A stretch of 64,000 nt of DNA from an uncultured Chloroflexia bacterium (GCA_963707215.1 CAVPPB010000001.1:848780-912779); one strand, 5' to 3'. Shown: positions 7,493 to 30,153, counted from the first letter of the stretch. Program-made: numbers and translations. The notes: a model not told the origin generated them from the sequence alone.

Positions 7493-7954
7493 ATGGCGAC
7501 CATCCCCGCGACCGACCAGGGCGGCGGCGTCCCCCGCCGACGGTTCCTGCGCTTCCTGCTCGGCTTCTCCGTGGTCTCGACCCTGGCCATGATCGCGGCC
7601 CCGGTCGTGGGCTTCCTCCTGCCCCCCAAGACCACCGGCGGTGGGGGCGGCGGCAAGATCCTGGTCGGGACGATCGCCGACATCCCGCTGGGCCAGGGCA
7701 AGGTCGTGCCCGTGGGCAGCAGCCCCGCGATCATCATCAACACGGACCAGGGGGTGAAGGGCTTCTCGGCCATCTGCACCCACCTGGGCTGCATCGTCGC
7801 CTGGGACCAGGGCGCCGCCAACATCGTCTGCCCCTGCCATGACGGCCGCTTCAACGCCACGTCGGGGGCCGTCGTCTCGGGTCCTCCGCCGTCCGGCCTG
7901 CCCCCGGTCGAGGTGTCGGTCGAGGGCGAAGAGATCTACGTCGTGAGCGCTTGA
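7493..7954 (+). CDS. qcrA: Rieske 2Fe-2S subunit of a Rieske/cytochrome b complex
   Basis: Tat motif RRRFL plus TM helix; CTHLGC and CPCHDGRF boxes; GPPP. Confidence 0.93.
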   Translation: MATIPATDQGGGVPRRRFLRFLLGFSVVSTLAMIAAPVVGFLLPPKTTGGGGGGKILVGTIADIPLGQGKVVPVGSSPAIIINTDQGVKGFSAICTHLGCIVAWDQGAANIVCPCHDGRFNATSGAVVSGPPPSGLPPVEVSVEGEEIYVVSA

Positions 7955-7956
7955 CG

Positions 7957-9048
7957 ATGGCCGTCGACAGCCCGCCCGTCACGACCGGCAAGCCGACCAC
8001 CGCGGGGCGCGTCGACGCGTGGCTCGAGGAGCGCCTGCGCTGGCATCAGCTCATGGACGTCCTCCTCCACGTCCGGGTCCCGCTGCAGGCCAAGACCTTC
8101 TTCTTCGGCGGGATCACGCTCTTCCTGTTCGGCGTGCAGGTGGCGACCGGGACCCTGCTGGCGCTCTACTACAAGCCCACCCCGGAGGCGGCCTACGACA
8201 GCGTCGTCTTCATCACCAGTGACGTGGACTTCGGCTGGCTCATCCGCAGCGTCCACCACTGGGCCGCCAACCTGATGATCCTGTTCCTGGTCCTCCACAT
8301 GATCAGGATCTTCTTCCAGGCCGCCTACAAGTACCCGCGCGAGCTGACCTGGCTCGTCGGCATGGGTCTGCTGGCCGTGACCATGGGCTTCGGCTTCACC
8401 GGCTATCTGCTGCCGTGGGACCAGCGGGCCTACTGGGCGACGGTCGTCGGCACCGAGATCGCCGGAGGCATCCCGTTCATGGGTGACTTCCTGCTGGAGC
8501 TCCTCCGTGGCGGCGCCGACGTCTCCGAGGCGACCCTCAGCCGGTTCTTCGGCATCCACGTCCTGGTCCTGCCGCTGATGCTGGGAGCGATCGTCGCCAT
8601 CCACCTGGTCTTCGTCCACCAGCAGGGCCTGGCCAACCCCAAGGAAGCCGATCCGCGGCCACCGGCCGTGCCGACCGGCCCGACCAAGCCCTTCTTCCCT
8701 CACTACATCCTCGAGGAGGTCATCGCCTGGCTGTTCCTCCTGGCGATCCTCGTCGTGATGGCCTCGATCTGGCCGGCCGGCCTGGAGGAGGAGGCGAACC
8801 CCCTGGTGACCCCCGAGCACACCAAGCCGGAGTGGTACTTCCTGGGGGTCTACGAGCTCCTCAAGCACATCCCCTGGAAGGTCGTCGGGATCCTCACTCC
8901 CATCGTCTTCCTTGCGATCATCGGGCTGCTGCCCTTCCTCGACCGGAACCCGGCCGTCCAGGCCCGCAAGCGACCGGTCGCCATCGCCCTCGGGATCGTC
9001 ACGATCGCCGTCCTCATCGGCCTGACGATCTGGGGCTACCTGAGCTGA
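7957..9048 (+). CDS. qcrB: Cytochrome b (fused b6 + subunit IV type)
   Basis: GWLIRSVHHW..LH, GYLLPWDQ, RFFGIH...IH heme ligands, PEWY motif. Confidence 0.95.
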   Translation: MAVDSPPVTTGKPTTAGRVDAWLEERLRWHQLMDVLLHVRVPLQAKTFFFGGITLFLFGVQVATGTLLALYYKPTPEAAYDSVVFITSDVDFGWLIRSVHHWAANLMILFLVLHMIRIFFQAAYKYPRELTWLVGMGLLAVTMGFGFTGYLLPWDQRAYWATVVGTEIAGGIPFMGDFLLELLRGGADVSEATLSRFFGIHVLVLPLMLGAIVAIHLVFVHQQGLANPKEADPRPPAVPTGPTKPFFPHYILEEVIAWLFLLAILVVMASIWPAGLEEEANPLVTPEHTKPEWYFLGVYELLKHIPWKVVGILTPIVFLAIIGLLPFLDRNPAVQARKRPVAIALGIVTIAVLIGLTIWGYLS

Positions 9049-9061
9049 GGTCCTGAAGACG

Positions 9062-10534
9062 ATGCGGATCGGGTCGGACACGCAGCGCCGCCTCCGCCAT
9101 CTCCGCCTGGCCGTTCCCGCCGGCCCGATCATCCTGCTCGTCCTCGTCCTGGGCGGCGGTCCGGCGGCGGCCCAGGATCCGGAGCCCACGCCGACCCTCA
9201 TCCCGGGCCCGCCGGCACCGACGCCGATCGCCCACCCGGGTGACTCCGGCGATGACCAGTGCTACGCCTGCCACGTGGAGCTCGACGACCGGCAGCAGGC
9301 GATCTCCGAGGCGTGGGAGGCGAGCATCCACGGCGCCGGCGGCATCGGCTGTGCCGACTGCCACGGCGGCGATCCGAGGTCGGACAAGATCACCGTTGCC
9401 ATGTCCGAGGAGGCCGGCTTCATCGGCATCCCGTCACGCGACGTGACGGTGGGGGTCTGCGGCAGCTGCCACAGCGACCCGGAGCGGATGGGCCAGTACG
9501 GCCTCCCCACGGACCAGTACTCGAAGTACTGGACCAGCGTCCACGGCCAGCGCCTCCTCGAGGCGGACGACACCCGGGTCGCCATCTGCATCGACTGCCA
9601 CGGGTCCCACGCGGTCAAGAAGGCTTCCGACCCGACGGCCGACGTCTACCCGCTCAACGTCCCCCAGATGTGCTCGCGGTGCCACTCGGATCCGTCGCTC
9701 ATGGAGCCGTACGGCATCCCGACGGACCAGTACGACGTCTACGAGCAGAGCATCCACGGCCAGGCGCTCATCGGGAACCAGGACGTCCGGGCGCCCTCGT
9801 GCACGTCGTGCCATGGCTCGCACTCCGCCCAGCCGCCGCGCAGCTCCGAGGTCGTCGACGTCTGCGGGAAGTGCCACACCGCGACCCAGGACCTCTACCT
9901 CGAGAGCCGGCATGCCGAGCTGGAGACGGTCGCGCCCAAGTGCTGGACCTGCCACGGGACGCACGACGTGGCCAAGTCGAGCGAGGCGCTATTCCTCCAC
10001 CCCGCGGGCGAGATGCCCGACTACGACTGCACGACCTGCCACGAGCCACCCGACATGACCCTGAAGCTGAGCATCGAGCAGTTCGCGAACGAGGCCGATC
10101 GCCGCTGCGACACCTGCCACCACCCCGAATCGGTGATCTACCCGCAGGTCGTCGCCATCCATGACGCCCTGGGCGGCGCCAGCGGAGCCCAGGCCTCGGC
10201 CGAGGAGAAGATCGCCAAGGCCCGCGGCCTGGGCATGCTCGTCGGCGACGCCGAGGTGACCCTCACCGAGGCGAAGACCGCCTATATCCAGGGCCAGGCC
10301 GCGGTCCACACGACCAAGCTGACGACCGTCACCGCCCACACCGACGAGGCGGTCGCCAAGGCGGCCCGGGCCGAGGAGCTGGCCCAGGCGAAGCTCGACG
10401 AGAGCGACTTCCGCCGGCTGGCGATGATCGTCGTCATCGCCCTCATCCTGGTCAACGTCGTCATCCTCTACGTCGTCCTGCGCCGGATCGAGCACAGCCC
10501 GAACGAGGGCCCACCGCCCGAGCCGTCGCCATAG
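9062..10534 (+). CDS. Decaheme cytochrome c with C-terminal membrane anchor
   Basis: Signal peptide; 10 CxxCH (CYACH, CADCH, CGSCH, CIDCH, CSRCH, CTSCH, CGKCH, CWTCH, CTTCH, CDTCH); helical region then TM helix. Confidence 0.92.
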   Translation: MRIGSDTQRRLRHLRLAVPAGPIILLVLVLGGGPAAAQDPEPTPTLIPGPPAPTPIAHPGDSGDDQCYACHVELDDRQQAISEAWEASIHGAGGIGCADCHGGDPRSDKITVAMSEEAGFIGIPSRDVTVGVCGSCHSDPERMGQYGLPTDQYSKYWTSVHGQRLLEADDTRVAICIDCHGSHAVKKASDPTADVYPLNVPQMCSRCHSDPSLMEPYGIPTDQYDVYEQSIHGQALIGNQDVRAPSCTSCHGSHSAQPPRSSEVVDVCGKCHTATQDLYLESRHAELETVAPKCWTCHGTHDVAKSSEALFLHPAGEMPDYDCTTCHEPPDMTLKLSIEQFANEADRRCDTCHHPESVIYPQVVAIHDALGGASGAQASAEEKIAKARGLGMLVGDAEVTLTEAKTAYIQGQAAVHTTKLTTVTAHTDEAVAKAARAEELAQAKLDESDFRRLAMIVVIALILVNVVILYVVLRRIEHSPNEGPPPEPSP

Positions 10535-10732
10535 GCCCGGGGTCGGCCGCGGAGCGACCCTCGGGTCGCCACCGGGTCGGCCGGTCCGGACCGCAACGCA
10601 GGCGTCCCCGAAGGCGAGCGACGGTCCCGTCGCGGACCGGCGGATCGGCCTGTGCGTCGGGGCCGCACGGTCCCGCGGGGGGCGGGCCGGACGGCACTGT
10701 CCGACATATTCGCGGATACGCATGGTCGGGGC

Positions 10733-12538
10733 ATGCACCTGCCCCGCTGGGCCCGCGACCTGGAGCTCCTGAAGTGGATCGGCGTCATCCTGCCGATCGT
10801 CTTCATCTGGGTCTTCGAGCTCGTCCGCTTCTTCGTCGTCGAGGAGAGCGTCGGCGGCACCGAGACCCACGTCGTCTCGGCGCTCGTCATGGCCGGTGCC
10901 GTGGTCCTGTTCGGCATCGGGATGGCCGCCCTCATCGACCGGACCGAGCGCGAGCTCGTCCGCCAGAACCGCGACTTGACGGCCACCCGCGCGGTCAGCG
11001 AGGCCGTCCGGGGGAACCGCCCGCTGCCGGAGGCCCTCGCCGAGGCCCTGGAGGGGCTGGCCCGCGAGACCGGCGCCGTCGCCGGCGTCATCCGGGTGCC
11101 CGGGGACGACGGTCGCGAGCTCGTGACGCGGCAGCCCCGGACCGTTCCGGCGGGCCTGGACTGGGCCGGGGCGCTCCTCGACGAGCCGGCGTCGACCCGT
11201 GCCGACGGCCCGCGCTACAGCGAGCGACGCGAGTTGGACACGACCCTTCTCGACCTCCCGCTCGCCTCCCGGGGGCAGCGCCTGGGATCGCTGCGCCTTG
11301 TCTTCCATCCCGCCCAACGACCCGATCTCTCCGAGGAGGCGCTGTCCGACATCGCCGACGAGCTCGCCACCGCCATCCGGCTCCACCACCTGGTCGAGGA
11401 CCTCCGGCGGCGCGAGCGGGAGCGGGCCGCCCTCTACGAGGTCGCCCTCCAACTCACCGAGCGGAGCGAGACGCGCCCGGCGCTCGACTCGATCGCGGAG
11501 CATGCTCGTGGACTGCTGGTGGCGGATCGCGCGGTCGTCTGCCTGGCCGAGCCCGACGCGGCGACCCGGTCCCGGCACGCGGCCGAGCGCCTGGCGCTCG
11601 CCGACGACGGTTCCGTCTGCCTGCTGGCCCAGGCTGGCGACGAGCCCGGCCACCGCAACCCCCTGTGCCCCGTTCAGATGGAGCGCGCTGGGAGCCAGTG
11701 GATGGCCCGACCGCTCCGCAGCGCCGACGGTCACCTCGGGGAGCTCTGCGTGGTGCGGGAGCAGGGTCCGGCCTTCTCCGACGCCGATCGGTCGCTGCTG
11801 GCCGCCCTGGCCGACATGGCCGCCATCGCCGTCACCACGGCCCGCCTCAAGGAGGCCGAGCAGCAGTGGACGATCGTCGCCGAGCGCGACCGTATCGCCC
11901 GCGAGCTGCACGACAGCCTGGCCCAGGTCCTGGGCCACATCCACCTGCGGCTGCGCGACATCGAGACCCGGCTCGACGGCGCCGCCCCGATCATCGGGGC
12001 CGAGCTGGCCGACCTGGCCGGCGTCGCCGACGAGGCCTACCGGGACGTCCGCGAGGCGATCCTGGGGTTGCGCGAGACGATCTCGTCCGAGGGCGGATTG
12101 GAGGGAGCGCTCCGCGAGTACATCGCCAAGTACGCCCGCCAGACGGGCATCAAGGCGAGCCTGGTGTGCGACGAGACCGCCCGGGCGGCGCTGCCGCCGC
12201 GGGCCGAGGTCCAGCTGCTCCGCGTCGTCCAGGAGGCCCTGACGAACGTCCGCAAGCACGCCGGCGCGACCCGGGTCGTCGTCCGGATGCGCTGCCCCGG
12301 CGGGATGCCGATCGTCGAGGTCGAGGACGACGGTGCCGGGTTCGACCCTTCGCGGCTGGAGAAGTCCTTCAGCGGCGGGTTCGGCCTGACCTCGATGCGC
12401 GAGCGCGTCGAGCAGGTCGGCGGTACCCTCGAGCTGCATACTGCCCCCGGTGAGGGGACCCGGATCGTGGTCCGCCTCCAGCCAGAGGACCCTCGTGTCG
12501 CACCAGCCACCACGTCTCCGGATCCTGCTGGTCGATGA
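10733..12538 (+). CDS. Membrane GAF-domain sensor histidine kinase (NarX-like, HisKA_3)
   Basis: Two N-terminal TMs; GAF-like regions; ERDRIARELHDSLAQ H-box; QEALTNVRKHA; DDGAGFD; GFGLTSMRER. Confidence 0.92.
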   Translation: MHLPRWARDLELLKWIGVILPIVFIWVFELVRFFVVEESVGGTETHVVSALVMAGAVVLFGIGMAALIDRTERELVRQNRDLTATRAVSEAVRGNRPLPEALAEALEGLARETGAVAGVIRVPGDDGRELVTRQPRTVPAGLDWAGALLDEPASTRADGPRYSERRELDTTLLDLPLASRGQRLGSLRLVFHPAQRPDLSEEALSDIADELATAIRLHHLVEDLRRRERERAALYEVALQLTERSETRPALDSIAEHARGLLVADRAVVCLAEPDAATRSRHAAERLALADDGSVCLLAQAGDEPGHRNPLCPVQMERAGSQWMARPLRSADGHLGELCVVREQGPAFSDADRSLLAALADMAAIAVTTARLKEAEQQWTIVAERDRIARELHDSLAQVLGHIHLRLRDIETRLDGAAPIIGAELADLAGVADEAYRDVREAILGLRETISSEGGLEGALREYIAKYARQTGIKASLVCDETARAALPPRAEVQLLRVVQEALTNVRKHAGATRVVVRMRCPGGMPIVEVEDDGAGFDPSRLEKSFSGGFGLTSMRERVEQVGGTLELHTAPGEGTRIVVRLQPEDPRVAPATTSPDPAGR

Positions 12539-13202
12539 CCAGCCCCTCTTCCGCAAGGCCCTCGCGAGCCTGATCTCCGGCCAGTTCGACCTCAACGTCG
12601 TCGGCGAGGCCAGCGACGGGCGTGAGGCGCTGGAGCAGGTCCGCAACCTCCGACCCGACCTGGTAGTCATGGACGTCCAGATGCCCGGCGTAGACGGGAT
12701 CGGCGGGGTCAAGGCCATCCGGACGGCCGGGATCGACGTCCCCATCGTCATGCTCACCATCTCCGACGAGGACGACGACCTCTTCGAGGCCGTCCAGGCC
12801 GGCGCCAACGGCTACCTGCTCAAGAACATGCGGCCGGAGCAGATCTTCGAAGGCATCCGCGGCGCGGCCAAGGGCGAGGCCCCGGTCGCCGGCGCTGTCG
12901 CCGGCAAGCTCCTCGAGGCACTCCGCCACGGCGGGGTGGCGCCCAGCCGGGTCGCCACCGACGCCACGCCCGAGGAGATGTCGCTGACCCGTCGCGAGGC
13001 GGAGATCCTCCAGCTGATCGCGGCCGGCCTGTCCAACAAGGAGATCGCCGCTCGCCTGACGATCACCGAGGGCACGGTCAAGAACCACGTCCACCACGCC
13101 CTCGAGAAGCTCCACCTGACCAACCGGGTCCAGGCCGCGGCCTACGCGGTCCGCCACGGCTACGGTCGCGGGGACGGCACGGGATCCGAGCCGGCTGGCT
13201 GA
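12495..13202 (+). CDS. NarL/LuxR-family response regulator
   Basis: ILLVDDQPLFR, PDLVVMDVQMP, GYLLK; HTH LTRREAEILQLIAAGLSNKEIA...TVKNHV. Confidence 0.95.
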   Translation: MSHQPPRLRILLVDDQPLFRKALASLISGQFDLNVVGEASDGREALEQVRNLRPDLVVMDVQMPGVDGIGGVKAIRTAGIDVPIVMLTISDEDDDLFEAVQAGANGYLLKNMRPEQIFEGIRGAAKGEAPVAGAVAGKLLEALRHGGVAPSRVATDATPEEMSLTRREAEILQLIAAGLSNKEIAARLTITEGTVKNHVHHALEKLHLTNRVQAAAYAVRHGYGRGDGTGSEPAG

Positions 13203-13406
13203 CTCCTGGCGCTGCGTCAGCGAGCCGATGTGCGCCACGGGGTACATGCCGGTTCGCTTCACCCCGATGGTCACGGGATCGCCGTAGGCCGGACGATAGA
13301 GACGTGACCCAGGATTGTGCCGTCGGGCGGATGGTCGGCCTCGTGGACGGGCCCCTAGCATCCCGAGGGTGGGGCCCAAGGCGGGCCCGTGCACGGGGGC
13401 GCCGAA

Positions 13407-13853
13407 TTGGCGGCCGATCCGATCTCGGTCCTGCTGCTCTACGTCAACCCGCTTCTCGGCGAGGGGCTCGAGCGCCTGCTGACCGCCGAGCCGCGACTGT
13501 CGGTGACGGCACTCCACCTGGCCTGCTCCGCTCCTCTCGCGCCGATCGCCGATCAGGATGCCGACGTGGTCATCTTCGAGGAGGGTGGTCCGCTGGGCCT
13601 CGAGCAGCTCCTCGAGCGGACCCGTGCTCCGATCGTCATCGCGGTCAGCCTCCACACGGGCGACGTCTGGACGCTTCGGCGCGACGACCTGCGCAAGCGT
13701 TCCGGTGATGTCGTCGACGAGATCGTGGCGACCTGCCTGGGCCGCGCCGACGCCGCGGCCCGCGCCGTTCGGGGCGGGCGCCGACGACCGGTCGCGATCG
13801 AGGTGGCCGATGACCAGCGGACGCCGACCCCCCGAGCGTATCGCCCCGCCTGA
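13407..13853 (+). CDS. Hypothetical protein, degenerate receiver-like domain
   Basis: VLLLYVNPLLGEGLERLL...DVVIFE resembles a REC N-terminus; no HTH; start uncertain (13389 or 13407). Confidence 0.5.
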   Translation: MAADPISVLLLYVNPLLGEGLERLLTAEPRLSVTALHLACSAPLAPIADQDADVVIFEEGGPLGLEQLLERTRAPIVIAVSLHTGDVWTLRRDDLRKRSGDVVDEIVATCLGRADAAARAVRGGRRRPVAIEVADDQRTPTPRAYRPA

Positions 13854-13877: not shown

Positions 13878-14360
13878 ATGAGCCTTCCTTCCGGCCACCG
13901 CATGCCCCGCCGCCGCGCGCTCCTCGTCATCGGATCGAGCGTCGCCGCCATCGGCGCCACTCCCCTCGCCCTGGCCGGCTGCGAGCCGCCGGTGCCGGTG
14001 GACACGACGTTCGAGCTCGACCCGGCAAGCCTGCCCGTGGGCGAACCGACGCTCATCGGCTTCGAGTTCGAGAAGCCCGACGGGTCGATCGGCCAGGGCT
14101 CGGCCTGGTTCCTGCGCAGCGACGACGACGCGCTCGTTGCCTACGACCCGCGCTGCACCCACCAGGCTTGCGAGTACGCCTGGGAGCCGGCCCAGGCGCA
14201 GTTCACCTGCGTCTGCCACGAGGCCGCCTTCTCCCTGGACGGCGAGGTCTTGTTCGGCCCGCCGCCACGGCCGCTGGCTCGGTTCCCGATGGTCGTCAGC
14301 GGGACGTCGGTGACCCTCACGGTCCCCTCGAACCTGCAGGCGCCCAAGACCGAAGGCTGA
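13878..14360 (+). CDS. Second Rieske 2Fe-2S protein (Tat lipoprotein-like)
   Basis: RRRALL, LAGC lipobox, CTHQAC / CVCHEAAF, GPPPRPL. Confidence 0.88.
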   Translation: MSLPSGHRMPRRRALLVIGSSVAAIGATPLALAGCEPPVPVDTTFELDPASLPVGEPTLIGFEFEKPDGSIGQGSAWFLRSDDDALVAYDPRCTHQACEYAWEPAQAQFTCVCHEAAFSLDGEVLFGPPPRPLARFPMVVSGTSVTLTVPSNLQAPKTEG

Positions 14361-14590: not shown

Positions 14591-15586
14591 ATGTTCCGGG
14601 TCACGTCCCTGACCGCGATGTCGGACCGGCAGCTCGACCGCTGGATCAAGCGGATCGCGGCGCTGGCGCTGATCGCGCTCGTGGCGTTCGTGGCGTTCTA
14701 CGTCTTCGACCGCTACCGCGATCCCGGCCCGACGATGGTCGACCGCAACATCATCGCCCTCGAGGAAGTCGTCCGGGCCGACCCGGCCGACATCACCTCG
14801 CGGGGCCAGCTCGCCGACCTCTACACGGCCGCCGGCCGCTACGAGGATGCGATCGCCCAGTACGGGGCGATCCTCGAGACCGGCAAGGAGACCGAGCTGG
14901 CCCACTTCGGGCGGGCCAAGGCCTACCAGGCCAGCGGGCAGCTCGATGCCGCGGCCGCGGACTTCGAGGTGGTCGTGGGCATCGCCAAGGAAGGCGAGAT
15001 GGCCCACGTCGACCCGATCCTGAATGCCGCCTACTTCGGTCTCGGAGCGATCGCCCTCGAGCAGGGCCGCCCGGACGACGCGGTCACCCACCTCACGGCG
15101 GCGGTCAACATCAAGCGGGCTGACGCCGACTCGTGGAACCTCCTCGGGGCGGCCCTGGTCGACGTCGGCGAGCCCGCCAAGGCCATCGAGGCCCTCCAGA
15201 AGGCCGTCGCCTTCGTGCCGCTCGGGTGGGTCGAGCCATACGTGACGATGGCCGAGGCCTACACCGCGCTCGGCCAGCCGGCCCGGGCGGAGTGGGCCAA
15301 CGCGATGGCCGATCTCTCCGCCGGCAAGCCCGACGAGGCGAGGACCCGGCTCCTCGCCATCACCGAGGGCGAGACGGCCCTCGACGCCGCCATCGGCCTG
15401 GCGCTCATCGCCGAGACCGAGGGCGATGGGCCAGCGGCGGTGGAGTGGTACACGAAGGCGCTGGCGATCGATCCCGAGAACGCGGCCGCCCGGCTCGGTC
15501 TCGGCAGGGTCAGCGACCCAGCCGCCAGCGCGGCTCCACTGCCCGAGCTGCCCGAGCCCGGTGCCGTGGAAGGCGGCCAGGGCTGA
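14591..15586 (+). CDS. Membrane-anchored tetratricopeptide repeat protein
   Basis: N-terminal TM helix followed by Ala-rich TPR units (AYFGLGAIAL..., SWNLLGAAL..., ALAIDPENAAA). Confidence 0.85.
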   Translation: MFRVTSLTAMSDRQLDRWIKRIAALALIALVAFVAFYVFDRYRDPGPTMVDRNIIALEEVVRADPADITSRGQLADLYTAAGRYEDAIAQYGAILETGKETELAHFGRAKAYQASGQLDAAAADFEVVVGIAKEGEMAHVDPILNAAYFGLGAIALEQGRPDDAVTHLTAAVNIKRADADSWNLLGAALVDVGEPAKAIEALQKAVAFVPLGWVEPYVTMAEAYTALGQPARAEWANAMADLSAGKPDEARTRLLAITEGETALDAAIGLALIAETEGDGPAAVEWYTKALAIDPENAAARLGLGRVSDPAASAAPLPELPEPGAVEGGQG

Positions 15587-16653: not shown

Positions 16654-16733
16654 CTCATGTGTAGAGAGGGAGGTGCGACCCGTCCAACGTCGATCCGCCG
16701 GCTGGGCCGGCTACCCACACAGCACACGACAGA

Positions 16734-17101
16734 GAGAAAGGAGGTAAGGACAGTGAAACGCCTGGCGCTCCTGATGACAGGCGGCGCCATCTGGCTGTTC
16801 CTTGCCGCACTCCCTGCCCTCGCTGACGGCGGACCCCACGTCTCGACGATCAACAACGGGTCGCTGGGGATCAACGCCGACAGCTGTGCCGGGTGCCACC
16901 GTGCGCACACGGCACAGGGTCCATTCCTCATCAATGCCGCCGACGAGGAGGCCCTCTGCCTGACGTGCCACGGCGCGGCCGGCACGGGCTCGACCGTCGA
17001 CGTCATGACCGGCGTCCAGTACACCCTGGGCGGAGACGGCCTCCGCGGTGGTGCCATCCTTGGTGCTGCCCGCAACGGCGGCTTCGACCAGGCCCGGATC
17101 G
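16734..17101 (+). repeat. 368-bp direct repeat, copy 1 (RBS and 5' third of hexaheme gene 1)
   Basis: Matches 18059-18426 except two synonymous changes (CCT GCC vs CCC GCT), by eye. Confidence 0.93.
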
Positions 17102-18010: not shown

Positions 18011-18018
18011 AAGCTCAG

Positions 18019-22184: not shown

Positions 22185-22462
22185 ATGGAGCGGCCTGCCC
22201 GGCGCATCTGACCACCGCGAGCCCAGCAGGACGGTCCCACCCGCGCCATCAGGGGAATCGGTGCGAAGGCACGCCAGCGTGCACGGTCGCGGCTCGGGGC
22301 CGACGGAACCCCGTCGCCGTCACGCCTGATGACGCGCACCCCAAGCACTCACGTCGCCGCGGCGACCGCTCCCGAGCGTTGACCCAGGTCGGCGGACGAT
22401 GGTGGCGGAGCCCGGGGATCGGGAGCGTCGTCCTGGCCCCCGCCTTGTCGCCCGCTCCTGCG

Positions 22463-22482
22463 CATATATCCAGGGATACATG
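22463..22482. promoter_or_regulatory. Palindromic operator-like site upstream of the maturation operon
   Basis: CATATATCC-AG-GGATACATG (one mismatch), an AT-rich spot in GC-rich intergenic DNA. Confidence 0.45.
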
Positions 22483-22694
22483 GCCCGGGCCGTTCCTCCA
22501 TCCCCCGGCCGGCCGAATGGCCCCCGAAATGTGCCCGCTGACGGATAGGTCGGCGGCCTGGCCCTCCGGACAATCGCCTCAGGTGTCAATGGGCTCGCGA
22601 CGCGATCGCGAGCAGGAAGAGAGGGCGATCCGATGGAAGCCATGCGAAGCGGTGGTCGGACGCGCGCCGCGCGTCCCCGCCGGAGCGGTCGGTC

Positions 22695-23865
22695 ATGACC
22701 GCTCCGACCGCGCGATCCGACTCCCACCAGCAGGTCCTGCTGGCTCGTCTGGGTCTCGACGACCGGGCCACGCCCGAGGACGTCGAGGTCACCCATGACG
22801 AGCTCGTCGGCATTCCTGACGACCGCACCGCGGTCGCTCCGCGCCTGGGCCCGTGTCCAGGCCGAGGCGGCCGACGAGGCCTTCGCTCTTCTCACGGACC
22901 CGGACGCACCCGGGATCCCCGGAGCCCTCTCGGGATCCAAGGGACGTGCGACGGTCCAGCCCGACGGGCCGGCGACACCTCCGGCCCGTCGGGCACCCTC
23001 GCCCGCACCGGAAGCGGCCGCCGTGGCCGCCGCGGCTGTCGCGGCCGAGGGCGCCATCGACGACGGGGCGGAGGAGCTCGAGGCGGACGAGGACGTCAGC
23101 TTCGAGGAACTCCTCGCCGAGGTCACCCCGGGCACCCACCGGGAGAGCCTGGCCCCGAAGGGCTCGAAGCCCAAGGCGAAGGGGAAGGGAGCCGCCGAGG
23201 CGGCCCCGGTCGCCGCGGCCACCGTCGCGACGGGCCAGCCGGCCGGTGGCAGCTCCCGGGTCAAGCGCTTCGGCATCATCGGCGCCGTCGCCGTCGCGGC
23301 GGTCGTCGTGGTCGCCGGGGTCTACCAGCTCGGCGCGGCGTCGAACTCGCCCGGCAGCATCGCCTCTGCGAGCCAGCAGCCGCAGGCGAGCGCCGGCGTC
23401 GACCAGGCCCGGGTCTCCGACCTGATGGCCAAGGTCCAGGCCGACCCGACCGATAGCGCCTCGATGATGCAGCTGGGTGACGTCTTCTACGTCGCCGGCG
23501 ACTTCGGTGCGGCCGCCACCTGGTTCGGCAAGGCGCTGGCGGTCGACCCGACCGACAGCGACGCCCAGCTCGCCCTGGGGGCCGCCCTCTTCAACGCCGG
23601 CGATATGGAGGGTGCCGAGGCGGCCTGGATCGCCGTCGTCGAGCGCGAGCCCGACAACGTCGAGGCCCATTACGACCTCGGCTTCCTCTATCTGAACCAG
23701 GAGCCGCCGGACATGGACGGCGTCCAGCGCGAGTGGGGCAAGGTCGTCGAGCTGGCCCCCGACTCGGATGTCGCCCAGACGGTCAAGGCCCACCTCGACG
23801 CCTTCGAGAGCCCGGCGGCCAGCACGGCCCCGAGTGCCTCGCCTGAAGGATCCGTCGAGCCATGA
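22695..23865 (+). CDS. Membrane TPR protein (CcmH/CycH-like TPRs) with J-domain-like N-terminus; frameshift ~22812
   Basis: Joins ORF 22695 (LGLDDRATPEDV) to ORF 22795; TM helix then TPRs (QLGDVFY, ALGAALFNAGD, AHYDLGFLYL). Confidence 0.72.
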
Positions 23866-24590
23866 TCGAAGTCGGGATCCTGGTCGCGTTCCTCGGCGGG
23901 ATCCTCTCGTTCGCTTCGCCCTGCTGCCTGCCGCTCGTGCCCGCCTACGTGGGCTACATGGTCGGCACGGCCACGGAAGGACCCGGCGCCCGGCGCCGCA
24001 CGCTCCTCCACGGGCTAGCCTTCGTCCTCGGCTTCTCGGTCGTATTCGTGGCCTTCTGGGCCTCCATCGGGCTCGTCGGCTACGTGCTGGCCGATCAGGC
24101 CTGGATCCTGCGGCGGCTCGGCGGGGTCGTGCTCGTCGTCCTCGGCCTCCAGGTGGCCGGGGTCATCAACCTGCGGGCGCTCTGGCGCGACACTCGGCCG
24201 ATGCCGGCGATGGCCGCCGGCCCCGGCCTGGGGACGGCCACGACGTCGGCTCCCGGCTACGGGCGGTCGCTCGCCTTCGGCACCTTCTTCGCCGCCGGCT
24301 GGAGCCCGTGCATCGGGCCCATCCTCGGCGGGATCCTCGGCCTCGCGACGGTGACCGCCAGCGTCGCCCAGGGGACCGTCCTCCTGGTCGCCTACGCGGC
24401 CGGACTGGCGATCCCCTTCCTTGCCGTGGCCCTCGGTGCCGACTGGGTCGCCCACCGGCTCACCTGGGTCGGGCGTCACCACCGAGCCGTTTCCATCATC
24501 ACCGGCGCCTCGCTCGTCGCGATCGGCGTCCTGATGCTCACCGACACCCTGACCCGGCTGGCGGCCCTGACGTCGCCGCTGGGCATCTGA
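23862..24590 (+). CDS. ccdA: Cytochrome c biogenesis protein CcdA
   Basis: SFASPCCLPLVPAY and GWSPCIGPILG motifs; multiple TMs. Confidence 0.95.
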   Translation: MIEVGILVAFLGGILSFASPCCLPLVPAYVGYMVGTATEGPGARRRTLLHGLAFVLGFSVVFVAFWASIGLVGYVLADQAWILRRLGGVVLVVLGLQVAGVINLRALWRDTRPMPAMAAGPGLGTATTSAPGYGRSLAFGTFFAAGWSPCIGPILGGILGLATVTASVAQGTVLLVAYAAGLAIPFLAVALGADWVAHRLTWVGRHHRAVSIITGASLVAIGVLMLTDTLTRLAALTSPLGI

Positions 24591-24604: not shown

Positions 24605-26137
24605 ATGACCCAGCAGGCACGGACCGGCCGCCTCCCGGGCGACGCGTCCCCGGCCCCGGCCGAGGTCGAGCGCGATTCCGGGTTCGGGATCGACGACCTC
24701 CTGGAGCGCGCCTGGCACCTCCTCACCTCGATGAAGTTCGGGGTGTTCATCATCCTGATCCTGGCCGGCCTCGGGCTCATCGGCTCGATGATCATCCAGG
24801 CCCCACCGGGGATCGCCGCCGACCCGGCCGCCAAGGCCGACTGGCTGGCCGAGATCGCCCCCAAGATCCTGCCCGGCATCGAGTTCCTGCAGTCGATCCC
24901 GATCGTGGGAGCGCTGGTCCCGACGGTCCGCTACGGCGACGTCTCGGGCACCTTCGACGCGCTCCAGATCTTCAGCATCTTCGACTCGATCTGGTTCCGG
25001 GCCCTGGGGGCGCTCCTGACGGCGAGCCTCATCGCCTGCTCGTCGCACCGGCTGCCGGGTCTCTGGAAGTCGGCCACCAAGCCGCACGTCGCCATCGGCG
25101 AGGCGTTCTTCACCCACGCCCCCCAGCATGAGTTCATCTCGGTCAAGGGGACGCCGGAGGAGATCCAGCAGCGGGTCACCTCGGTGATGAAGAAGCACCA
25201 CTACCGGGTCGTCACCGAGGACGACGGGGTGACCCACCTCTACGCCGACAAGTTCCGCTGGGGGCCCTTCGGGACGGTCATCGGCCACCTGAGCCTGGTC
25301 GTCATCCTGGCCGGCGCGATCGTCGGCTCGATGTTCGGTTTCCGGGACAACGGTTTCGTGGTGGCGGAGGGCTCGACGGTGCCGGTCGCCACGGATGACG
25401 GCATCTCGGTCGAGCTGATCCAGTTCCAGGACGCCTACTACACCGACACCGGCGCCCCGGCCGACTACGCCAGCGACGTCGTCGTCTACCAGGACGGTGC
25501 CGAGGTCGCCCGCCATACCGTCCGCGTCAACGAGCCGCTCCGCTACGGCGGCCTGTCGTTCTACCAGTCGTTCTACGGCCCGGCCGCGGCGATGAGCGTC
25601 GCCGACGCCGAGGGCACCGAGGTCTTCGCCGACGGCGTCCCGCTCGCCTGGAGCGATGGCGACTCCGGACGCCGCGTCGGCACCTTCGTCATCCCCGGCG
25701 CGAACCTGACCGTCTGGGTCATCGGGACCGCCGGGACCGGTGACACGGTCGTCGCCCCGGGCCAGATGCGCGTCGAGGTCTACAACGGCAGCGACGGCAG
25801 CCCGGTGGCCGGCGAGACGATCGACCAGGGTGACACGGTCGAGGTGGCCGGCTATGGCTTCACCTTCCAGCGGGAGATGCAGTTCACCGGCCTGTCGGTC
25901 GCCCGGGACCCGGGCACGCCGCTCATCTGGCTCGGTTCCGGTCTCATGATCGCTGGCTTCGTCCTGGTCCTGATGTTCCCCCACCGGCGGGTCTGGGGTC
26001 GCCTGGTCACCCGGCCGGGTGGCCGCGGGACCCTCTCCCTGGCCGGAGCAGGCCGACGCGACGTCGGCTCGAACACCGAGTTCACCGACCTGGTCACCGA
26101 GATCCGGGCGGCATCCACCACGCCGACGGGAGGCTGA
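24605..26137 (+). CDS. resB: Cytochrome c biogenesis protein ResB/CcsB (System II)
   Basis: LTSMKFG, GSMIIQ, FDSIWF, GHLSLVVILAG, VRVNEPLRYGG..FYQS, TGLSVARDPG..LIWLG, HRRVW. Confidence 0.92.
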   Translation: MTQQARTGRLPGDASPAPAEVERDSGFGIDDLLERAWHLLTSMKFGVFIILILAGLGLIGSMIIQAPPGIAADPAAKADWLAEIAPKILPGIEFLQSIPIVGALVPTVRYGDVSGTFDALQIFSIFDSIWFRALGALLTASLIACSSHRLPGLWKSATKPHVAIGEAFFTHAPQHEFISVKGTPEEIQQRVTSVMKKHHYRVVTEDDGVTHLYADKFRWGPFGTVIGHLSLVVILAGAIVGSMFGFRDNGFVVAEGSTVPVATDDGISVELIQFQDAYYTDTGAPADYASDVVVYQDGAEVARHTVRVNEPLRYGGLSFYQSFYGPAAAMSVADAEGTEVFADGVPLAWSDGDSGRRVGTFVIPGANLTVWVIGTAGTGDTVVAPGQMRVEVYNGSDGSPVAGETIDQGDTVEVAGYGFTFQREMQFTGLSVARDPGTPLIWLGSGLMIAGFVLVLMFPHRRVWGRLVTRPGGRGTLSLAGAGRRDVGSNTEFTDLVTEIRAASTTPTGG

Positions 26138-26147: not shown

Positions 26148-27032
26148 ATGTACAAGATGTCGGAATACGCGTTCATCGCCGCGATCCTGGCCACCGGCCT
26201 GGCGCTGCTTCTGTACCTCGCCTATGCCCTGTCCGGGCTGCGGGCGGCCAGGATGCAGACGGCCGGCACCGGCACGCGGACGGGAGTCCTGGCCTTCGCC
26301 GCGGGACCCCGGACCGCCGCCCTCGGGCGCTACGCCACGATCCTCGGCTGGCTGGGCTTCGCCTTCCTGACGGCCTGGCTCGTCTTCCGGACGTTCGCCA
26401 CCGGTCACGGCCCCTTCGCCAACATGTACGAGTTCAGCGTTTCGTTCGCCTGGGGCATCCTCGGCGCCTACTACTGGTTCGAGCACCGCTACCACCAGCG
26501 GATGCTGGGCCTCTTCGCCCTGCCGGTCGCCCTGGCCCTGATGCTCTACGCGATGACGATCCCGTCCGACGTGGAGCCGCTGGTCCCGGCCCTCCAGAAC
26601 AACCTGCTCCTGTCGGTCCACGTCGCGGTCGCGATCGTCGCCTACGGTTCGTTCACCATCGCCGCCGCGGCAGCCCTGCTCTACCTCATCCAGCCAGAGG
26701 GCGGCCGCTGGGGCCTGCCCAAGCCCGAAGTGCTCGACGAGATCGGCTACAAGGCCATCGTCGTGGGCTTCCCCTTCCTGACCGCGGTCATCGTCCTGGG
26801 CGCCATCTGGGCCGACGTGGCCTGGGGCCGCTACTGGAGCTGGGATCCCAAGGAGACGGCCTCGCTCGTCACCTGGCTCATCTACGGCGCCTACCTTCAC
26901 GCCCGAGTCGTCCGCAACTGGCGCGGCAAGAAGTCCGCCTACCTGCTCCTCCTGGGCTTCGGGGCGACCCTCTTCACCTACTTCGGCAACCTCTGGTTCG
27001 GCGGCCTCCACAGCTACTCGGGGCTGGGCTGA
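26148..27032 (+). CDS. ccsA: Cytochrome c synthase CcsA/ResC (System II)
   Basis: PFANMYE, LVPALQ..LLSVHV, WWD domain GAIWADVAWGRYWSWDPKET, YLH, GLHSY. Confidence 0.95.
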   Translation: MYKMSEYAFIAAILATGLALLLYLAYALSGLRAARMQTAGTGTRTGVLAFAAGPRTAALGRYATILGWLGFAFLTAWLVFRTFATGHGPFANMYEFSVSFAWGILGAYYWFEHRYHQRMLGLFALPVALALMLYAMTIPSDVEPLVPALQNNLLLSVHVAVAIVAYGSFTIAAAAALLYLIQPEGGRWGLPKPEVLDEIGYKAIVVGFPFLTAVIVLGAIWADVAWGRYWSWDPKETASLVTWLIYGAYLHARVVRNWRGKKSAYLLLLGFGATLFTYFGNLWFGGLHSYSGLG

Positions 27033-27065: not shown

Positions 27066-27674
27066 ATGGATGCGATGCGGATCCAGGCCCCGGCCTCGCG
27101 GGGCGGGCGCTTCGGCAGCGAGCGGCTGCGGACGATCGCGGTGCTGCTCGTCGTCGGGATCGCCCTCGTCGGGGTCGCCGTCGTCGTCGAGCAGCCCGGC
27201 GGACGACGGCTTCACCGGCGTCGACCCTGCCGGATGGCGCCGCGGCTGCCGCGCCGGCCGTCGGCGCGCTGGCCCCGGACTTCCAGACGACGACGATCGA
27301 CGGCACGCCGGTCAGCCTGTCGCGACTACCAGGGCCAGCCAGTGTGGCTGACCTTCGGGGCGAGCTGGTGCCGCGGACTGCCGAGGTGAGGCACCGGACC
27401 TCCAGGCCACGTACGAGAAGTACGCGGCGCAGGGGCTCTGGTCCTGTCCGTCTCGATCCAGGAGGACGAGCAGGCGGTCCGCGACTACGCCGAGCGGGTC
27501 GGCCTGACCTTCACCCAGATCGCCGATCCAAGGACGGTCATCGCCGGCCGTTACCGGATCATCGGCGTCCCGACCCACTACTTCATCTCGCCCGACGGGA
27601 ACATCGAGGAGGTCCGCCTGGGCGGCCTGCCGCCGGCCGAGATGGAGAGCCTGGTCCAGACGATCGTCCAGTAG
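27066..27674 (+). CDS. resA: TlpA/ResA-like membrane thioredoxin (several frameshifts)
   Basis: TM, then APDFQTTTIDG..., GQPVWLTFGASWC..C, RYRIIGVPTHYFISPDG read across frames. Confidence 0.75.
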
Positions 27675-27683
27675 GGACGGAGC

Positions 27684-29558
27684 ATGACGATGAGCGGCGC
27701 GCCGCGCGAGCCCGGGCAGCCCGAGGAAGGGCAGCCGGTCGAGGCCGAGCCCTCGACGCCGGCGATCCAGCCCGGGCCCGAGGCCGTCCCGGAGACTGCG
27801 CCCGAAGCCGCGCCCGTCGGCGAGGCGGCTCCAGCCGAGGACGCCGCGGCGACGCCCGAGGTCGAGGCGACGGCCGGTGAGGCGAGTCCGACCGCCGGAA
27901 CCGACGGCGACCAGGCGGACGGCGACCAGGTCGTGGCCGCCGCAGCCGCCGACGATGCCGCTCCGGACGGAGCCGCCGCCCCGCCGCCATCGCGCCGGAG
28001 CCGGATCCGCCGGTTCTTCCGGCTGCCGCGGTCTCGCCGCGCGCTCGGGGCGCTGATCCTGATCGGCGGCGCTTTCGGGATCGTCGGCATGATCGGCGGC
28101 TACCAGGTCATCCACTGGACGGAGACCGCCGACTTCTGCGGCCGCTGCCACACGATGGGACCCGAGCTGGCGGCCCACGAAGCCGGTCCCCACCAGCAGG
28201 TGTCCTGCGGCGAGTGCCACGTCGAGCCGGGCGTCCAGGGCTGGATCGCTGCGAAGATGAACGGCACCCGCCAGCTGGTCGAGATCATCCTGGGGACCTT
28301 CCCCGAGCCCATCCCGCCTCCCGAGCACGACGCCCTGCCGCCCGCCGAGAGCACCTGCCAGCACTGCCACGAGGTCGCCCGTCTGAACCCGTCGGGGATG
28401 CTCGCCCGGGTCCAGTACACCGAGGACGAGCCGAACACCCGTCAGTTCGTCGGCCTGATGGTCCGGCCGGCCAGCAGCGACGTCTTCGACACCAGCCGGG
28501 GCGTCCACTGGCACGTCATCCAGGACGTCGAGTACTGGACCGACGATCCGTTCGCCCAGGACATCGACCTCGTGGAGGCGACCCAGACCGACGGCAGCAC
28601 CCGGACGTTCATCGCCCAGGACCGGATCATGGTCGCCGAGGACGCCGACCCCGACGTCGAGGCGCTCAAGGCCGACCTCGACCAGGTCCGGATGAGCTGC
28701 TACGACTGCCACAATCGCGTCGGCCATCCGATCCCGAACCCGCGCGAGGGCCTCGATGCCTCGTTGTCCGCGGGGCGGATCGATCAATCCCTCCCGTACA
28801 TCAAGCGCGAGGGGATGCGGATCCTCTGGTCGAGCTACCCGACGGTCGAGGCTGCCGACGCCGAGGCCGAGAAGCTCTCCAACTTCTACGCTCTCTACTA
28901 CCCCGAGGTCATGCGGACCAAGCCGTTCGCGGTCAATGCGGCGATCGACCAGATCCAGTTCCTCTATCGCCTGACAGCGACGCCCGAGATGAAGATCACC
29001 GCGCAGACCTACCCCGACTCGCTGGGTCACACTGACTACCCGGGTTGCTTCCGCTGCCACGACGGCGGCCACTTCCTGGTGGCCGACGGGGCGGTCACCC
29101 GGACGACCATCCCGTCGAGCTGCGACACCTGCCACACCTTCCCCCAGATCGGCGGGGCGGTGGCCAGCCTGCCCATCGGCATCCCGCCGGAGAGCCACGA
29201 CGACACCCAGTACGTCTTCAGCCACCGCGACTACGCGACGTCCGAGGACCCGGGCGGGACGTCCTGCGGCGAGTGCCACGCCCGCGACTACTGCGTCAAC
29301 TGCCACGAGACGGGCGCGGTGACCGTGGAGCACGACCAGATGCTCATCAGCCACGCCGAGTCGATCCGGCAGTCGCCGACCGGCAGCGAGGCCTGCGCCT
29401 ACTGCCACCAGCCGGCCTACTGCTCGCGCTGCCACACGGAGCCGGTGCTCCCCGGCAGCGCCCCCTGGACCGCTGCCGATCCGGGCGCGCTGCCCAAGGG
29501 CCCGCCGGGCCTCGAGTGGCCGCTCTTCGCCGTCCTGCCCGTCGCGACCTCGCCCTGA
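27684..29558 (+). CDS. NapC/NirT-type membrane multiheme cytochrome, ImcH-like, 10 hemes
   Basis: TM then FCGRCHTM, CGECH, CQHCH, DEPNT, GVHWH, MSCYDCHNRVGH, LPYIK, GH..PGCFRCH, CDTCH plus four more CxxCH (CGECH, CVNCH, CAYCH, CSRCH). Confidence 0.88.
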   Translation: MTMSGAPREPGQPEEGQPVEAEPSTPAIQPGPEAVPETAPEAAPVGEAAPAEDAAATPEVEATAGEASPTAGTDGDQADGDQVVAAAAADDAAPDGAAAPPPSRRSRIRRFFRLPRSRRALGALILIGGAFGIVGMIGGYQVIHWTETADFCGRCHTMGPELAAHEAGPHQQVSCGECHVEPGVQGWIAAKMNGTRQLVEIILGTFPEPIPPPEHDALPPAESTCQHCHEVARLNPSGMLARVQYTEDEPNTRQFVGLMVRPASSDVFDTSRGVHWHVIQDVEYWTDDPFAQDIDLVEATQTDGSTRTFIAQDRIMVAEDADPDVEALKADLDQVRMSCYDCHNRVGHPIPNPREGLDASLSAGRIDQSLPYIKREGMRILWSSYPTVEAADAEAEKLSNFYALYYPEVMRTKPFAVNAAIDQIQFLYRLTATPEMKITAQTYPDSLGHTDYPGCFRCHDGGHFLVADGAVTRTTIPSSCDTCHTFPQIGGAVASLPIGIPPESHDDTQYVFSHRDYATSEDPGGTSCGECHARDYCVNCHETGAVTVEHDQMLISHAESIRQSPTGSEACAYCHQPAYCSRCHTEPVLPGSAPWTAADPGALPKGPPGLEWPLFAVLPVATSP

Positions 29559-29583
29559 GCGAGGTCGAGGAAGGAGTCGTCCC

Positions 29584-30153
29584 ATGCGCGCCCCGTCTGC
29601 TCCCGGAACCGGTCGGCGACCTCTTGTCGTCGCCTGGTTGCCGATCTTCCTCGTCCTCGTCCTCGGCGGCGCCGTCGCCGGCTGCTCGGCGCAGCACGAC
29701 GGCAGTGGTCCGCCGGTCAGCGCCATGCCGAGCCACACGCCCGAGGCCCACGCCTCGATGGCCCCGGACGAGGCCGGAGATGTCCCGACCGCGGACGAGG
29801 TCGCCGCGGCCTGGGCGATGCGCCCCGACTTCGTCTCGGGGGCGGACCAGCAGACCCAGGCGGCCTACGCCTTCGCCGTGGCCCGGCCCGACGTCGTCCA
29901 GTGGCTGCCCTGCTACTGCGGCTGCGGGGCGATGGGCCACCTGAGCAACCTCGACTGCTTCGTCAAGCCCACCGAGGGCGCGCCGGTCGTCTTCGAGGAG
30001 CACGGCTCCTACTGCGGCGTCTGCGTGGAGACGGCCCTGATGGCCCAGGACATGCTCGCCAAGGGCGCCACCCTGATCCAGATGCGGGCCGCCGTCGACA
30101 TCGAGTTCGGCGACCTCGCCCCGGGTACTCCGACGGATCTGCCGCCCGGCTGA
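29584..30153 (+). CDS. PCYCGC-motif lipoprotein
   Basis: VAGC lipobox; LPCYCGC..GHLSNLDCF...HGSYCGVC. Confidence 0.88.
   Translation: MRAPSAPGTGRRPLVVAWLPIFLVLVLGGAVAGCSAQHDGSGPPVSAMPSHTPEAHASMAPDEAGDVPTADEVAAAWAMRPDFVSGADQQTQAAYAFAVARPDVVQWLPCYCGCGAMGHLSNLDCFVKPTEGAPVVFEEHGSYCGVCVETALMAQDMLAKGATLIQMRAAVDIEFGDLAPGTPTDLPPG

Follow-up and report, generated by a model that had tools for sequence, protein, structure and literature searches.

A conserved 40-haem cytochrome gene cluster in Limnocylindria, a probable porin-less conduit between the menaquinol pool and the cell surface

Positions 7493–30153 of a 64 000-nucleotide stretch of DNA from an uncultured Chloroflexia bacterium (GCA_963707215.1; the whole stretch is referred to below as the window) carry a cluster of 19 genes that includes five multihaem c-type cytochromes, two Rieske proteins, a cytochrome b, a haem-attachment set and a two-component system. 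On balance, this cluster appears to be an accessory respiratory module that would form a porin-less conduit between the menaquinol pool and the cell surface. An earlier note on the same DNA had described the region as a complete, self-contained nanowire locus; the gene set is indeed conserved in relatives, but completeness and the wire were overstated. Three of the genes are broken in this assembly.

Organization and conservation of the cluster

The window corresponds to positions 848780–912779 of contig C1 in a 3.26 Mb assembly (G000) of five contigs, with a G+C content of 72%, a completeness of 84.8% and a contamination of 0.9%. It is a single stretch of C1, and the 'contig 1–37660' of the earlier note is not a contig. 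Since a plain list of open reading frames (ORFs) is useless at this base composition (127 ORFs of at least 80 amino acids), genes were called from third-position G+C (GC3) and frame plots and were checked by translation and Pfam. All 19 genes lie on the plus strand according to the GC3 frame plots and ORF lists, in agreement with the about 19 co-oriented genes counted previously, and a motif scan reproduced the previous total of about 40 haem motifs exactly (10 + 6 + 6 + 8 + 10). The motifs are found at 9260–10106 (ten CxxCH), 16885–17936 (six), 18210–19186 (six), 21000–22137 (seven CxxCH and one CxxxxCH) and 28137–29421 (ten). In the rest of the 64 kb window no CxxCH occurs in any frame, with four Cx3-4CH strings only, and the rest of the assembly holds a single further ORF with two or more CxxCH. 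Haem motifs are thus concentrated in the cluster far more than chance would allow. The one other multihaem ORF (C1:829928–830707, minus strand, 260 amino acids, seven CxxCH) lies ∼18 kb upstream of the window. The stalked octahaem, the TPR and NHL proteins and the two-component system named in the earlier note were all recovered by Pfam, motif scan and translation, and its statement that the cluster lacks an MtrB-type barrel is borne out by Pfam, which found no beta-barrel gene in the cluster when run on the cluster and flank proteins.

Among 201 genomes drawn from across the class, the hexahaem profile matched 16, namely G000, 13 of 60 others in its own family and two of 66 in a second family, with no match in the other families sampled. 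Neighbourhoods were compared by tblastn in nine of the 15 hexahaem-positive relatives. The order of the kinase, response regulator, conserved protein G6, TPR, NHL, hexahaem(s) and octahaem-type gene is kept in all nine, so that the synteny on which the earlier note had proposed to check its reading is conserved. A small Rieske gene is present between G6 and TPR in seven of the nine, and a TPR–CcdA–ResB–ResC–ResA–NapC-type decahaem block lies directly downstream in eight; in the ninth (G164), the NapC-type decahaem is located ∼35 kb further along the same contig. The tandem hexahaem pair occurs in five of the nine, and the Rieske/cytochrome b/decahaem triad adjoins the cluster in five, either upstream or downstream. 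A genome of the same genus (G217) carries the cluster on one contig with 72–85% DNA identity. Contigs of relatives' hexahaem sequences, spanning the equivalent of 16653–18010, are present in two RNA libraries from two studies, in which DNA carry-over is possible.

The two candidate quinol-oxidizing entries differ in their distribution. The NapC-type decahaem is encoded in 17 of the 201 genomes, including all 16 that are hexahaem-positive, whereas the bc-linked decahaem is encoded in 12, of which 11 are hexahaem-positive (11/16 carriers). From this co-occurrence we regard the NapC-type protein as the constant entry and the bc-type complex as an optional second one. Both entries claimed in the earlier note are thus present, but the Rieske/cytochrome b/decahaem entry is facultative.

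The hexahaem cytochromes

The genes hex1 (16753–18010), which encodes a Sec signal peptide, and hex2 (18078–19266), its tandem paralogue, each contain six CxxCH motifs; hex1 is frame-broken and hex2 bears indels (see below). They belong to a family with 1380 matches at E ≤ 1e-3 among 2733 candidates and an intact length of ∼400–430 residues. Six CxxCH motifs are present in 103 of 108 aligned members, and six histidines outside the motifs (29, 52, 152, 193, 343 and 358) show no variation among those rows of the 108-row alignment that cover their columns, a pattern that fits predicted bis-His ligation of all haems. The mature N-terminus (DGGPH), after predicted signal cleavage, is identical in all 97 sequences that cover it.

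Three methods of weak to moderate strength point to a distant relationship of the hexahaems to the OmcS family, and we do not place them in the wire-forming clade. A search of 177 635 PDB sequences with the family profile returned OmcS as the top match (E 0.0021, 20.6 bits), with haems 2–4 colinear. An AF2 model of an intact homologue (P0003), built without haems (pLDDT 78, pTM 0.80), retrieved OmcS (6ef8_A) at rank 1 in Foldseek with an E value of 7.8e-3, all other rows having E values above 4. VIA-align superposed residues 33–401 of the model on residues 1–407 (of 407) of the OmcS chain, with an r.m.s. deviation of 4.2 Å for 206 residues and a Z score of 7.7–7.8, Z scores of 7–8 being common for models that have no true match; the next best structure was MtrA (Z 4.3). 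The distant relationship is proposed because all three methods single out the same six-haem protein of 407 residues. The 'OmcS-like' designation of the two hexahaems in the earlier note therefore stands in this distant sense, but the note had not noticed that both genes are frame-broken. Several results speak against a closer or more secure assignment, beginning with the range of Z scores just given. The Foldseek match is weak (TM-score 0.23, probability 0.30), single-sequence phmmer against the PDB returned no OmcS and, for the C-terminal part of the hexahaem, no cytochrome relative, and the excerpted text of PMC12977616 states that sequence methods cannot separate wire-forming OmcS from non-wire paralogues even within Geobacter.

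It is doubtful that the hexahaems polymerize as an OmcS-type wire across the monoderm wall, with DGGPH providing an inter-subunit haem ligand, of which its invariance is no more than suggestive, and the octahaem as a seed or cap. A two-copy complex prediction for the mature hexahaem reached a score of 0.41, the mark being 0.42 and the controls scoring 0.00, and was used neither for nor against such an arrangement.

The two paralogues are unevenly similar. Positions 16753–17114 of hex1 and 18078–18439 of hex2 differ at two of 362 nucleotides (∼99% identity), while the remainder is ∼70% identical; the near-identical stretch spans the signal peptide and haems 1–2. This pattern suggests recent gene conversion between tandem paralogues, as read from the nucleotide comparison, and the near-identity could confuse read polishing.

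The octahaem, the membrane entries and the maturation set

The octahaem gene (19386–22184) encodes a protein of 932 amino acids, as judged from motifs and translation, with an N-terminal hydrophobic anchor or signal, a stalk, a middle domain and a C-terminal haem domain. The stalk comprises 100 residues (43% Pro, 23% Ser and 10% Thr). The database gene call (P0121, 784 amino acids) omits both the N-terminal anchor and the Pro/Ser/Thr stalk; the 932-residue form is supported by a relative (G185) that aligns from residue 4. The haem domain starts with the PHV-plus-two-haem module of the hexahaems (51 columns, 51% identity, hhalign probability 97%), and the histidine of this module shows a conservation of at least 90% among 77 homologues, some of which are labelled Actinomycetota. 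An AF2 model of the haem domain based on the 77-row alignment has a mean pLDDT of 52, which is too poor for a statement on the fold. Against the PDB, the octahaem profile gave local paired-CXXCH matches only (OmcE 7tfs, E 0.00098; MtrA, E 0.021), and a single-sequence search gave mostly low-complexity matches to the stalk.

The constant entry is a decahaem (27684–29558) with one transmembrane (TM) helix and an N-terminal haem module of the NapC/NirT/NrfH type (PF03264, E 2.3e-11, 44.2 bits against a cut-off of 24.1), which matches NrfH (2j7a_C) over residues 123–253 with an E value of 2.4e-8. Because the NCBIfam equivalog models all fall below their cut-offs, the protein is assigned to the NapC/NirT/NrfH family and not to NrfH, NapC or TorC proper. 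Its atlas neighbours are Chloroflexota clusters of the NapC/NirT type. The label 'ImcH-like' in the earlier note is overstated, its basis being this N-terminal module. NapC/NirT-type proteins such as NrfH and CymA are classically quinol dehydrogenases.

The optional entry is encoded by three genes at the upstream end of the cluster. The first (7493–7954) encodes a Rieske [2Fe–2S] protein with an N-terminal membrane anchor (PF00355, E 7.2e-12; the PetC TM anchor model is below its cut-off); its ATG is at 7493, and the frame is open from a GTG at 7475. The second (7951–9048) encodes a cytochrome b of 365 amino acids in which a b6-like N-terminal domain (PF00033, E 3.8e-56) and a subunit-IV-like C-terminal domain (PF00032, E 1e-18) are fused; its matches to the NCBIfam ExtP/ExtQ models are below the cut-offs (228.8 against 290 bits and 29.1 against 150), as is that to the NCBIfam cytochrome b6 model. 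The third (9062–10534) encodes a decahaem c-type cytochrome with a signal peptide, a C-terminal TM helix, ten CxxCH motifs and matches to cytochrome c7/c3 and paired-CXXCH Pfam families. With a Rieske protein, a cytochrome b that has both the N and the C domain, and an anchored c-type subunit encoded side by side, the three genes have the layout of a Rieske/cytochrome b complex, and the C-terminally anchored decahaem is likely to be its c-type subunit, although such a subunit would be unusual for these complexes.

The cluster encodes a System II cytochrome maturation set that is complete in type according to Pfam: CcdA (DsbD_TM; 23862–24590, PF02683, E 3.5e-15), which is the thiol-reductant transporter, ResB/CcsB (24605–26137, PF05140, E 2.6e-70), ResC/CcsA (26148–27032, PF01578, E 8.2e-45) and a ResA/TlpA-like thioredoxin (27066–27674), which is frame-broken and matched as an AhpC-TSA fragment. 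It is preceded by a membrane-anchored, CcmH/NrfG-like TPR protein (22795–23865) with matches to TPR families and a partial match to PF23914. Since a second ResB and a second CcsA are encoded elsewhere in the genome, the set is a second, cluster-linked copy, and in this sense the dedicated System II of the earlier note is confirmed.

These assignments bear on whether the cytochromes could themselves be catalytic, with an octahaem or decahaem akin to nitrite, hydroxylamine, sulfite or tetrathionate reductases, a possibility that the earlier note had also raised against its own proposal. All that suggests it are weak, partial matches to NrfA-, NrfB- and NrfH-type models, all of which fall well short of the cut-offs of these families; the cluster contains no CxxCK motif, and the NrfH-like part is a quinol-dehydrogenase module and not a catalytic subunit. 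No catalytic signature was found, and this explanation fits the data poorly and is highly improbable.

Frame breaks in hex1, hex2 and resA

Three genes of the cluster are interrupted in this assembly by a total of one (hex1), three (hex2) and five (resA) insertions or deletions (indels). In hex1, the frame shifts from 0 to 1 near 17215 through one extra C that hex2 and all intact homologues lack. In hex2, a +1 indel near 18547 and a −1 indel near 18593 compensate each other, and a further +1 near 18758 is uncompensated. The six haem motifs are divided by the breaks into 2 + 4 in hex1 and 3 + 3 in hex2. Compared with the intact copy of G217 (86% DNA identity), resA shows −2 after 27197, +1 at 27222, 27323 and 27371, and −1 after 27438, so that the five indels sum to zero, with an in-frame stop codon (27387–27389) within the shifted stretch.

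We consider it quite likely that these breaks are a local consensus error of the assembly and not biology. The competing explanation is that the module is decaying in this strain, the indels being real and very recent and the conduit dead here. This is a separate question from the function of the cluster in relatives, and the probability given to decay does not exclude any of the other readings. Consensus error is the likelier of the two because the same-genus genome and other relatives keep the genes intact: in G217, resA is intact with a WCADC site and one intact hexahaem carries all six motifs, and intact hexahaem homologues of 419 amino acids are found in the protein database at 86% and 83% identity. 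At the site of the extra C near 17215, contigs of three relatives are one, one and four bases shorter than the window, i.e. −1 modulo 3 in each case, which speaks against decay. On either side of the breaks, the broken genes also retain a marked GC3 signal and are highly identical to intact homologues, the frame is recovered by three pairs or sets of indels (resA having a net change of zero), and five indels in resA without other signs of decay would have to be very recent.

The distribution of such breaks among assemblies argues in the same direction. Split tblastn matches occur in relatives assembled into few contigs, affecting different cluster genes (NHL and ResB in G062, the decahaem in G179 and the octahaem in G164), while assemblies of relatives in many contigs show no such breaks in the cluster genes. 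Frame breaks thus seem to be a general feature of few-contig assemblies in this lineage, as far as these comparisons go. At 27222, 27323, 27371 and ∼17215 the single inserted base is in each case an extra C, located in or beside a CG-centred palindromic hexamer (GTCGAC, TCGCGA, CCGCGG and CTCGAG), which could be due to chance at 72% G+C or to a motif-linked base-calling error.

What favours decay is that no fewer than nine indels that break the frame are gathered in three genes linked by function. Over the 7.7 kb alignment with G217, all indels in well-aligned parts of other conserved genes are multiples of three. Other gaps that are not multiples of three occur at four places only: in the spacer without an ORF, near 22453; in the opening codons of the TPR gene; in the NapC-type decahaem, within its low-complexity N-terminal tail (with a sum of 15); and around the stop codon of the same decahaem and the intergenic gap after it. 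Furthermore, the reading frames of rpoB and rpoC (∼8.2 kb) are both unbroken. OmcS-type genes are also often gained and lost, according to the excerpted text of PMC12977616. Even so, we regard decay as unlikely, although it retains appreciable weight. Among public sequencing runs, the best share of sampled words was 0.15, and none of the contigs listed spans the hex2 indel sites.

Two other explanations were rejected. Programmed frameshifting does not agree with the different sites in hex1 and hex2 or with the one-frame genes of relatives, including the same genus. A uniformly poor, error-ridden assembly is contradicted by the open frames of rpoB and rpoC and by the single, full-length matches given by the other cluster genes.

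Host and cell envelope

The host is a member of the Limnocylindria (Chloroflexota). Of 77 hexahaem-family loci on contigs from one genome per species, 76 come from records labelled Chloroflexota, Chloroflexi, Chloroflexia, Limnocylindria, Limnocylindrales or Anaerolineaceae. The remaining locus (L094) is in a Candidatus Deferrimicrobiaceae record, in which the first 243 hexahaem residues (57% identity) are found at a contig end; this could be due to mis-binning or transfer. The host is therefore not a Geobacter relative, an origin within Geobacter or the Desulfobacterota being one that the earlier note had set against its proposal.

Omp85/BamA (PF01103) was found in none of the 61 genomes of the host family, G000 included, and in none of the 36 of high quality, the control being positive in seven diderms. 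LpxC gave no match in G000, and the MtrB/PioB family (PF11854) likewise gave none in G000, although its control was uninformative. The single-membrane (monoderm) character of the host, predicted from these gene absences, is well supported at the family level, and agrees with the high-G+C, likely single-membrane lineage of the earlier note, which had suspected the Chloroflexota or the Actinomycetota. G000 encodes a haem-copper oxidase, and a search of this 85%-complete genome for RuBisCO gave nothing, which together suggest an aerobic or facultative heterotroph.

Proposed function

In the porin-less conduit that we propose, the single-helix NapC/NirT/NrfH-type decahaem would oxidize menaquinol at the membrane as the constant entry, and in about two-thirds of carriers the Rieske/cytochrome b complex with its C-terminally anchored decahaem would provide a second. 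Electrons would then pass along chains of bis-His haems to the two secreted hexahaems, which may relay them through the wall, possibly as a polymer, and also to the octahaem, which would be held off the membrane on its Pro/Ser/Thr-rich stalk. The membrane-anchored TPR and NHL proteins could act as scaffolds or assembly factors, the second System II set (TPR, CcdA, ResB, ResC and ResA) would attach the 40 haems, and the GAF-domain kinase and LuxR-type regulator would control expression of the cluster. The terminal partner would be Fe(III), Mn(IV), humics or another cell.

The same components could operate in reverse, accepting electrons from a partner cell or from Fe(II), Mn(II) or reduced humics outside the cell and passing them inwards to the oxidase, and in reverse through the Rieske/cytochrome b complex to the quinone pool. 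The haem-copper oxidase would suit such a route, as would the two Rieske proteins, which are typically of high potential and one of which is of the lipoprotein type outside the membrane. NHL, TPR and CcsAB genes also stand beside cytochromes in the uet uptake cluster of Tenderia (excerpted text of 10.1101/2022.05.06.490989), and the record of one relative is labelled 'Mn-Chloroflexi', which is a label only. Outward reduction nevertheless has an edge over uptake because proteins of the NapC/NirT type are known above all for oxidizing quinol, no marker of carbon fixation was found, and the bc-type module is dispensable, being absent from five of the 16 carriers; the failure to find RuBisCO leaves lithoautotrophy without support. 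We therefore hold uptake to be rather unlikely.

Alternatively, the cluster might be a respiratory branch within the envelope that links quinol to an enzyme of the membrane or wall zone or to a soluble acceptor, with nothing outside the cell. A Rieske/cytochrome b pair that has a c-type subunit is common in ordinary respiration, and the accessory proteins are all membrane-anchored. However, Pfam found no catalytic subunit in the cluster or next to it, the secreted hexahaems have no anchor, the octahaem is placed on a stalk of 100 residues, the patchy distribution (16 of 201 genomes) suits an accessory trait, and the locus holds nearly all of the multihaem cytochromes of the genome. Like catalytic cytochromes, an internal branch fits the data poorly, and we consider it improbable.

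A number of points weigh against the conduit itself, in addition to the weakness of the individual OmcS matches described above. In this assembly hex1, hex2 and resA are not translatable as they stand. Rieske centres are of high potential and bis-His multihaems are usually of low potential, which clouds the energetics of the bc-type entry. Given the haem-copper oxidase, the module could feed, or be fed by, aerobic respiration instead of mineral reduction. Finally, G000 is only 84.8% complete, so that absences in this genome alone are weak.

Other genes of the cluster and its flanks

Downstream of the Rieske/cytochrome b/decahaem triad are a sensor histidine kinase with GAF, HisKA_3 and HATPase domains (10652–12538, Pfam; homologue in all nine relatives) and a response regulator with receiver and LuxR/GerE domains (12495–13202, Pfam), the start of which is uncertain, the frame being open from 12450. 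G6 (13389–13853) is a conserved protein of 154 amino acids with no Pfam or NCBIfam match and a homologue in all nine relatives. It is followed by the second small Rieske gene (13878–14360, PF00355, E 2.8e-9; seven of the nine relatives), with a lipoprotein-type signal (…LAGC…). The TPR protein (14591–15586, Pfam) and the NHL beta-propeller (15586–16653, PF01436, E 7.1e-34) each have an N-terminal TM helix and are found in all nine relatives; the start of NHL overlaps the TPR stop codon (TGATG).

A 610 bp spacer without a convincing ORF (22185–22794) separates the octahaem gene from the second TPR gene. It has a weak coding signal with stops in every frame and could represent a promoter, some other regulatory region or what is left of a gene; Rfam gave no match in the spacer or anywhere else in the window. 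The last gene (29584–30153) encodes a PCYCGC-motif, lipoprotein-like protein (PF13798, E 3.5e-24), which comes after the NapC-type decahaem here and also in two of the nine relatives (G038 and G188). It is CYCXC-like and Cys-rich and may be a metal- or redox-handling accessory. The cluster is flanked upstream by divergent minus-strand genes for a DUF454 protein and a short-chain dehydrogenase, and downstream by GYD and ABC transporter genes that are unrelated to it according to Pfam.

Comparison with known systems

The closest known system is the ImdcA–PdcA–CwcA–OcwA pathway of Thermincola potens and T. ferriacetica, which crosses the wall of a monoderm (PMC7911101; this and the comparisons with OmcS/OmcT and uet genes below draw on excerpts of the cited papers). 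The comparison is one of gene content. Both are porin-less and belong to monoderms, and both combine a membrane decahaem proposed to oxidize quinol, a hexahaem related to OmcS (here distantly) and a multihaem cytochrome at the surface (predicted to be so here). CwcA was modelled on OmcS at 18% identity and proposed to polymerize or stack through the wall (PMC7911101), and an OmcS homologue with 28% identity has been reported from a Coriobacteriales genome (PMC7399161), so that the concept has precedents in monoderms; the earlier note had known of no characterized nanowire system in the Chloroflexota or Actinomycetota. Thermincola belongs to the Bacillota and the present host to the Chloroflexota; the Limnocylindria locus adds the Rieske/cytochrome b/decahaem triad, the second Rieske protein, the TPR and NHL proteins, System II and the two-component system. 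Its surface protein would be the stalked octahaem, whereas that of Thermincola is the nonahaem OcwA, to which only local matches were obtained (6qvm, E 0.16 and 0.021).

With OmcS of Geobacter sulfurreducens (6EF8/6NEF), the hexahaems share six CxxCH motifs in ∼400 residues and six conserved histidines, although the similarity is marginal (E 0.002, Z 7.7). In Geobacter, omcS and omcT stand in tandem in one operon (PMC12977616) with companion genes (PMC12977616, PMC13194489), and the omcS/omcT, GSU2501 and osc genes resemble the present locus in their tandem paralogues, adjoining accessory genes and patchy distribution (PMC12977616, PMC13194489). Unlike Geobacter, the Limnocylindria host would need no outer-membrane secretion because it has no outer membrane.

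The uet cluster of 'Ca. Tenderia electrophaga' places NHL, TPR and CcsAB genes beside cytochromes of extracellular electron transfer (EET; 10.1101/2022.05.06.490989) and shares with the present locus multihaems, NHL, an NrfG-like TPR protein and a second System II (CcsA/CcsB) in one block. It differs in belonging to a diderm, in having the beta-barrel UetC, trihaem c7-type cytochromes and a cupredoxin, and in being proposed for uptake; as described there, it is without an OmcS-like hexahaem, Rieske/cytochrome b or NapC-type entry. Porin–cytochrome conduits of the MtrCAB and Pcc types are distinguished from the present cluster by a beta-barrel gene beside the cytochromes, which is lacking here, and by an outer-membrane host.

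The Geobacter Ext locus encodes Rieske/b6-type subunits, ExtP and ExtQ in NCBIfam nomenclature, beside multihaem cytochromes of EET. The present locus likewise has a b6-like cytochrome b and a subunit-IV-like part beside multihaems; here, however, the two parts are fused, the partner is a C-terminally anchored decahaem, and the matches are below cut-off.

No paper on this cluster or on OmcS-like proteins in Limnocylindria was found in the literature, although supplementary files may list such genes. One related study mentions only a cytochrome d (bd-type) terminal oxidase (PMC13212565), and another counts proteins with at least 20 haem motifs, mostly in Anaerolineae (10.1101/2021.08.23.457424); a third (PMC10954620) contains nothing that matched the search.

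Implications

Limnocylindria (Ellin6529/RIF-CHLX) are widespread in soils, aquifers and sediments, and we know of no cultured electroactive member. The module is compact, with ∼19 genes and its own haem-attachment set, and its frame breaks carry a warning for annotation in that such breaks in few-contig metagenome genomes can hide genes of this kind. If the porin-less conduit is correct, it would allow these monoderms to reach minerals, humics or partner cells and would extend OmcS-type chemistry beyond the diderm Desulfobacterota. Should the hexahaems also polymerize, which we consider doubtful, a very common soil and aquifer lineage would possess a cytochrome nanowire with a built-in, membrane-tethered adaptor.

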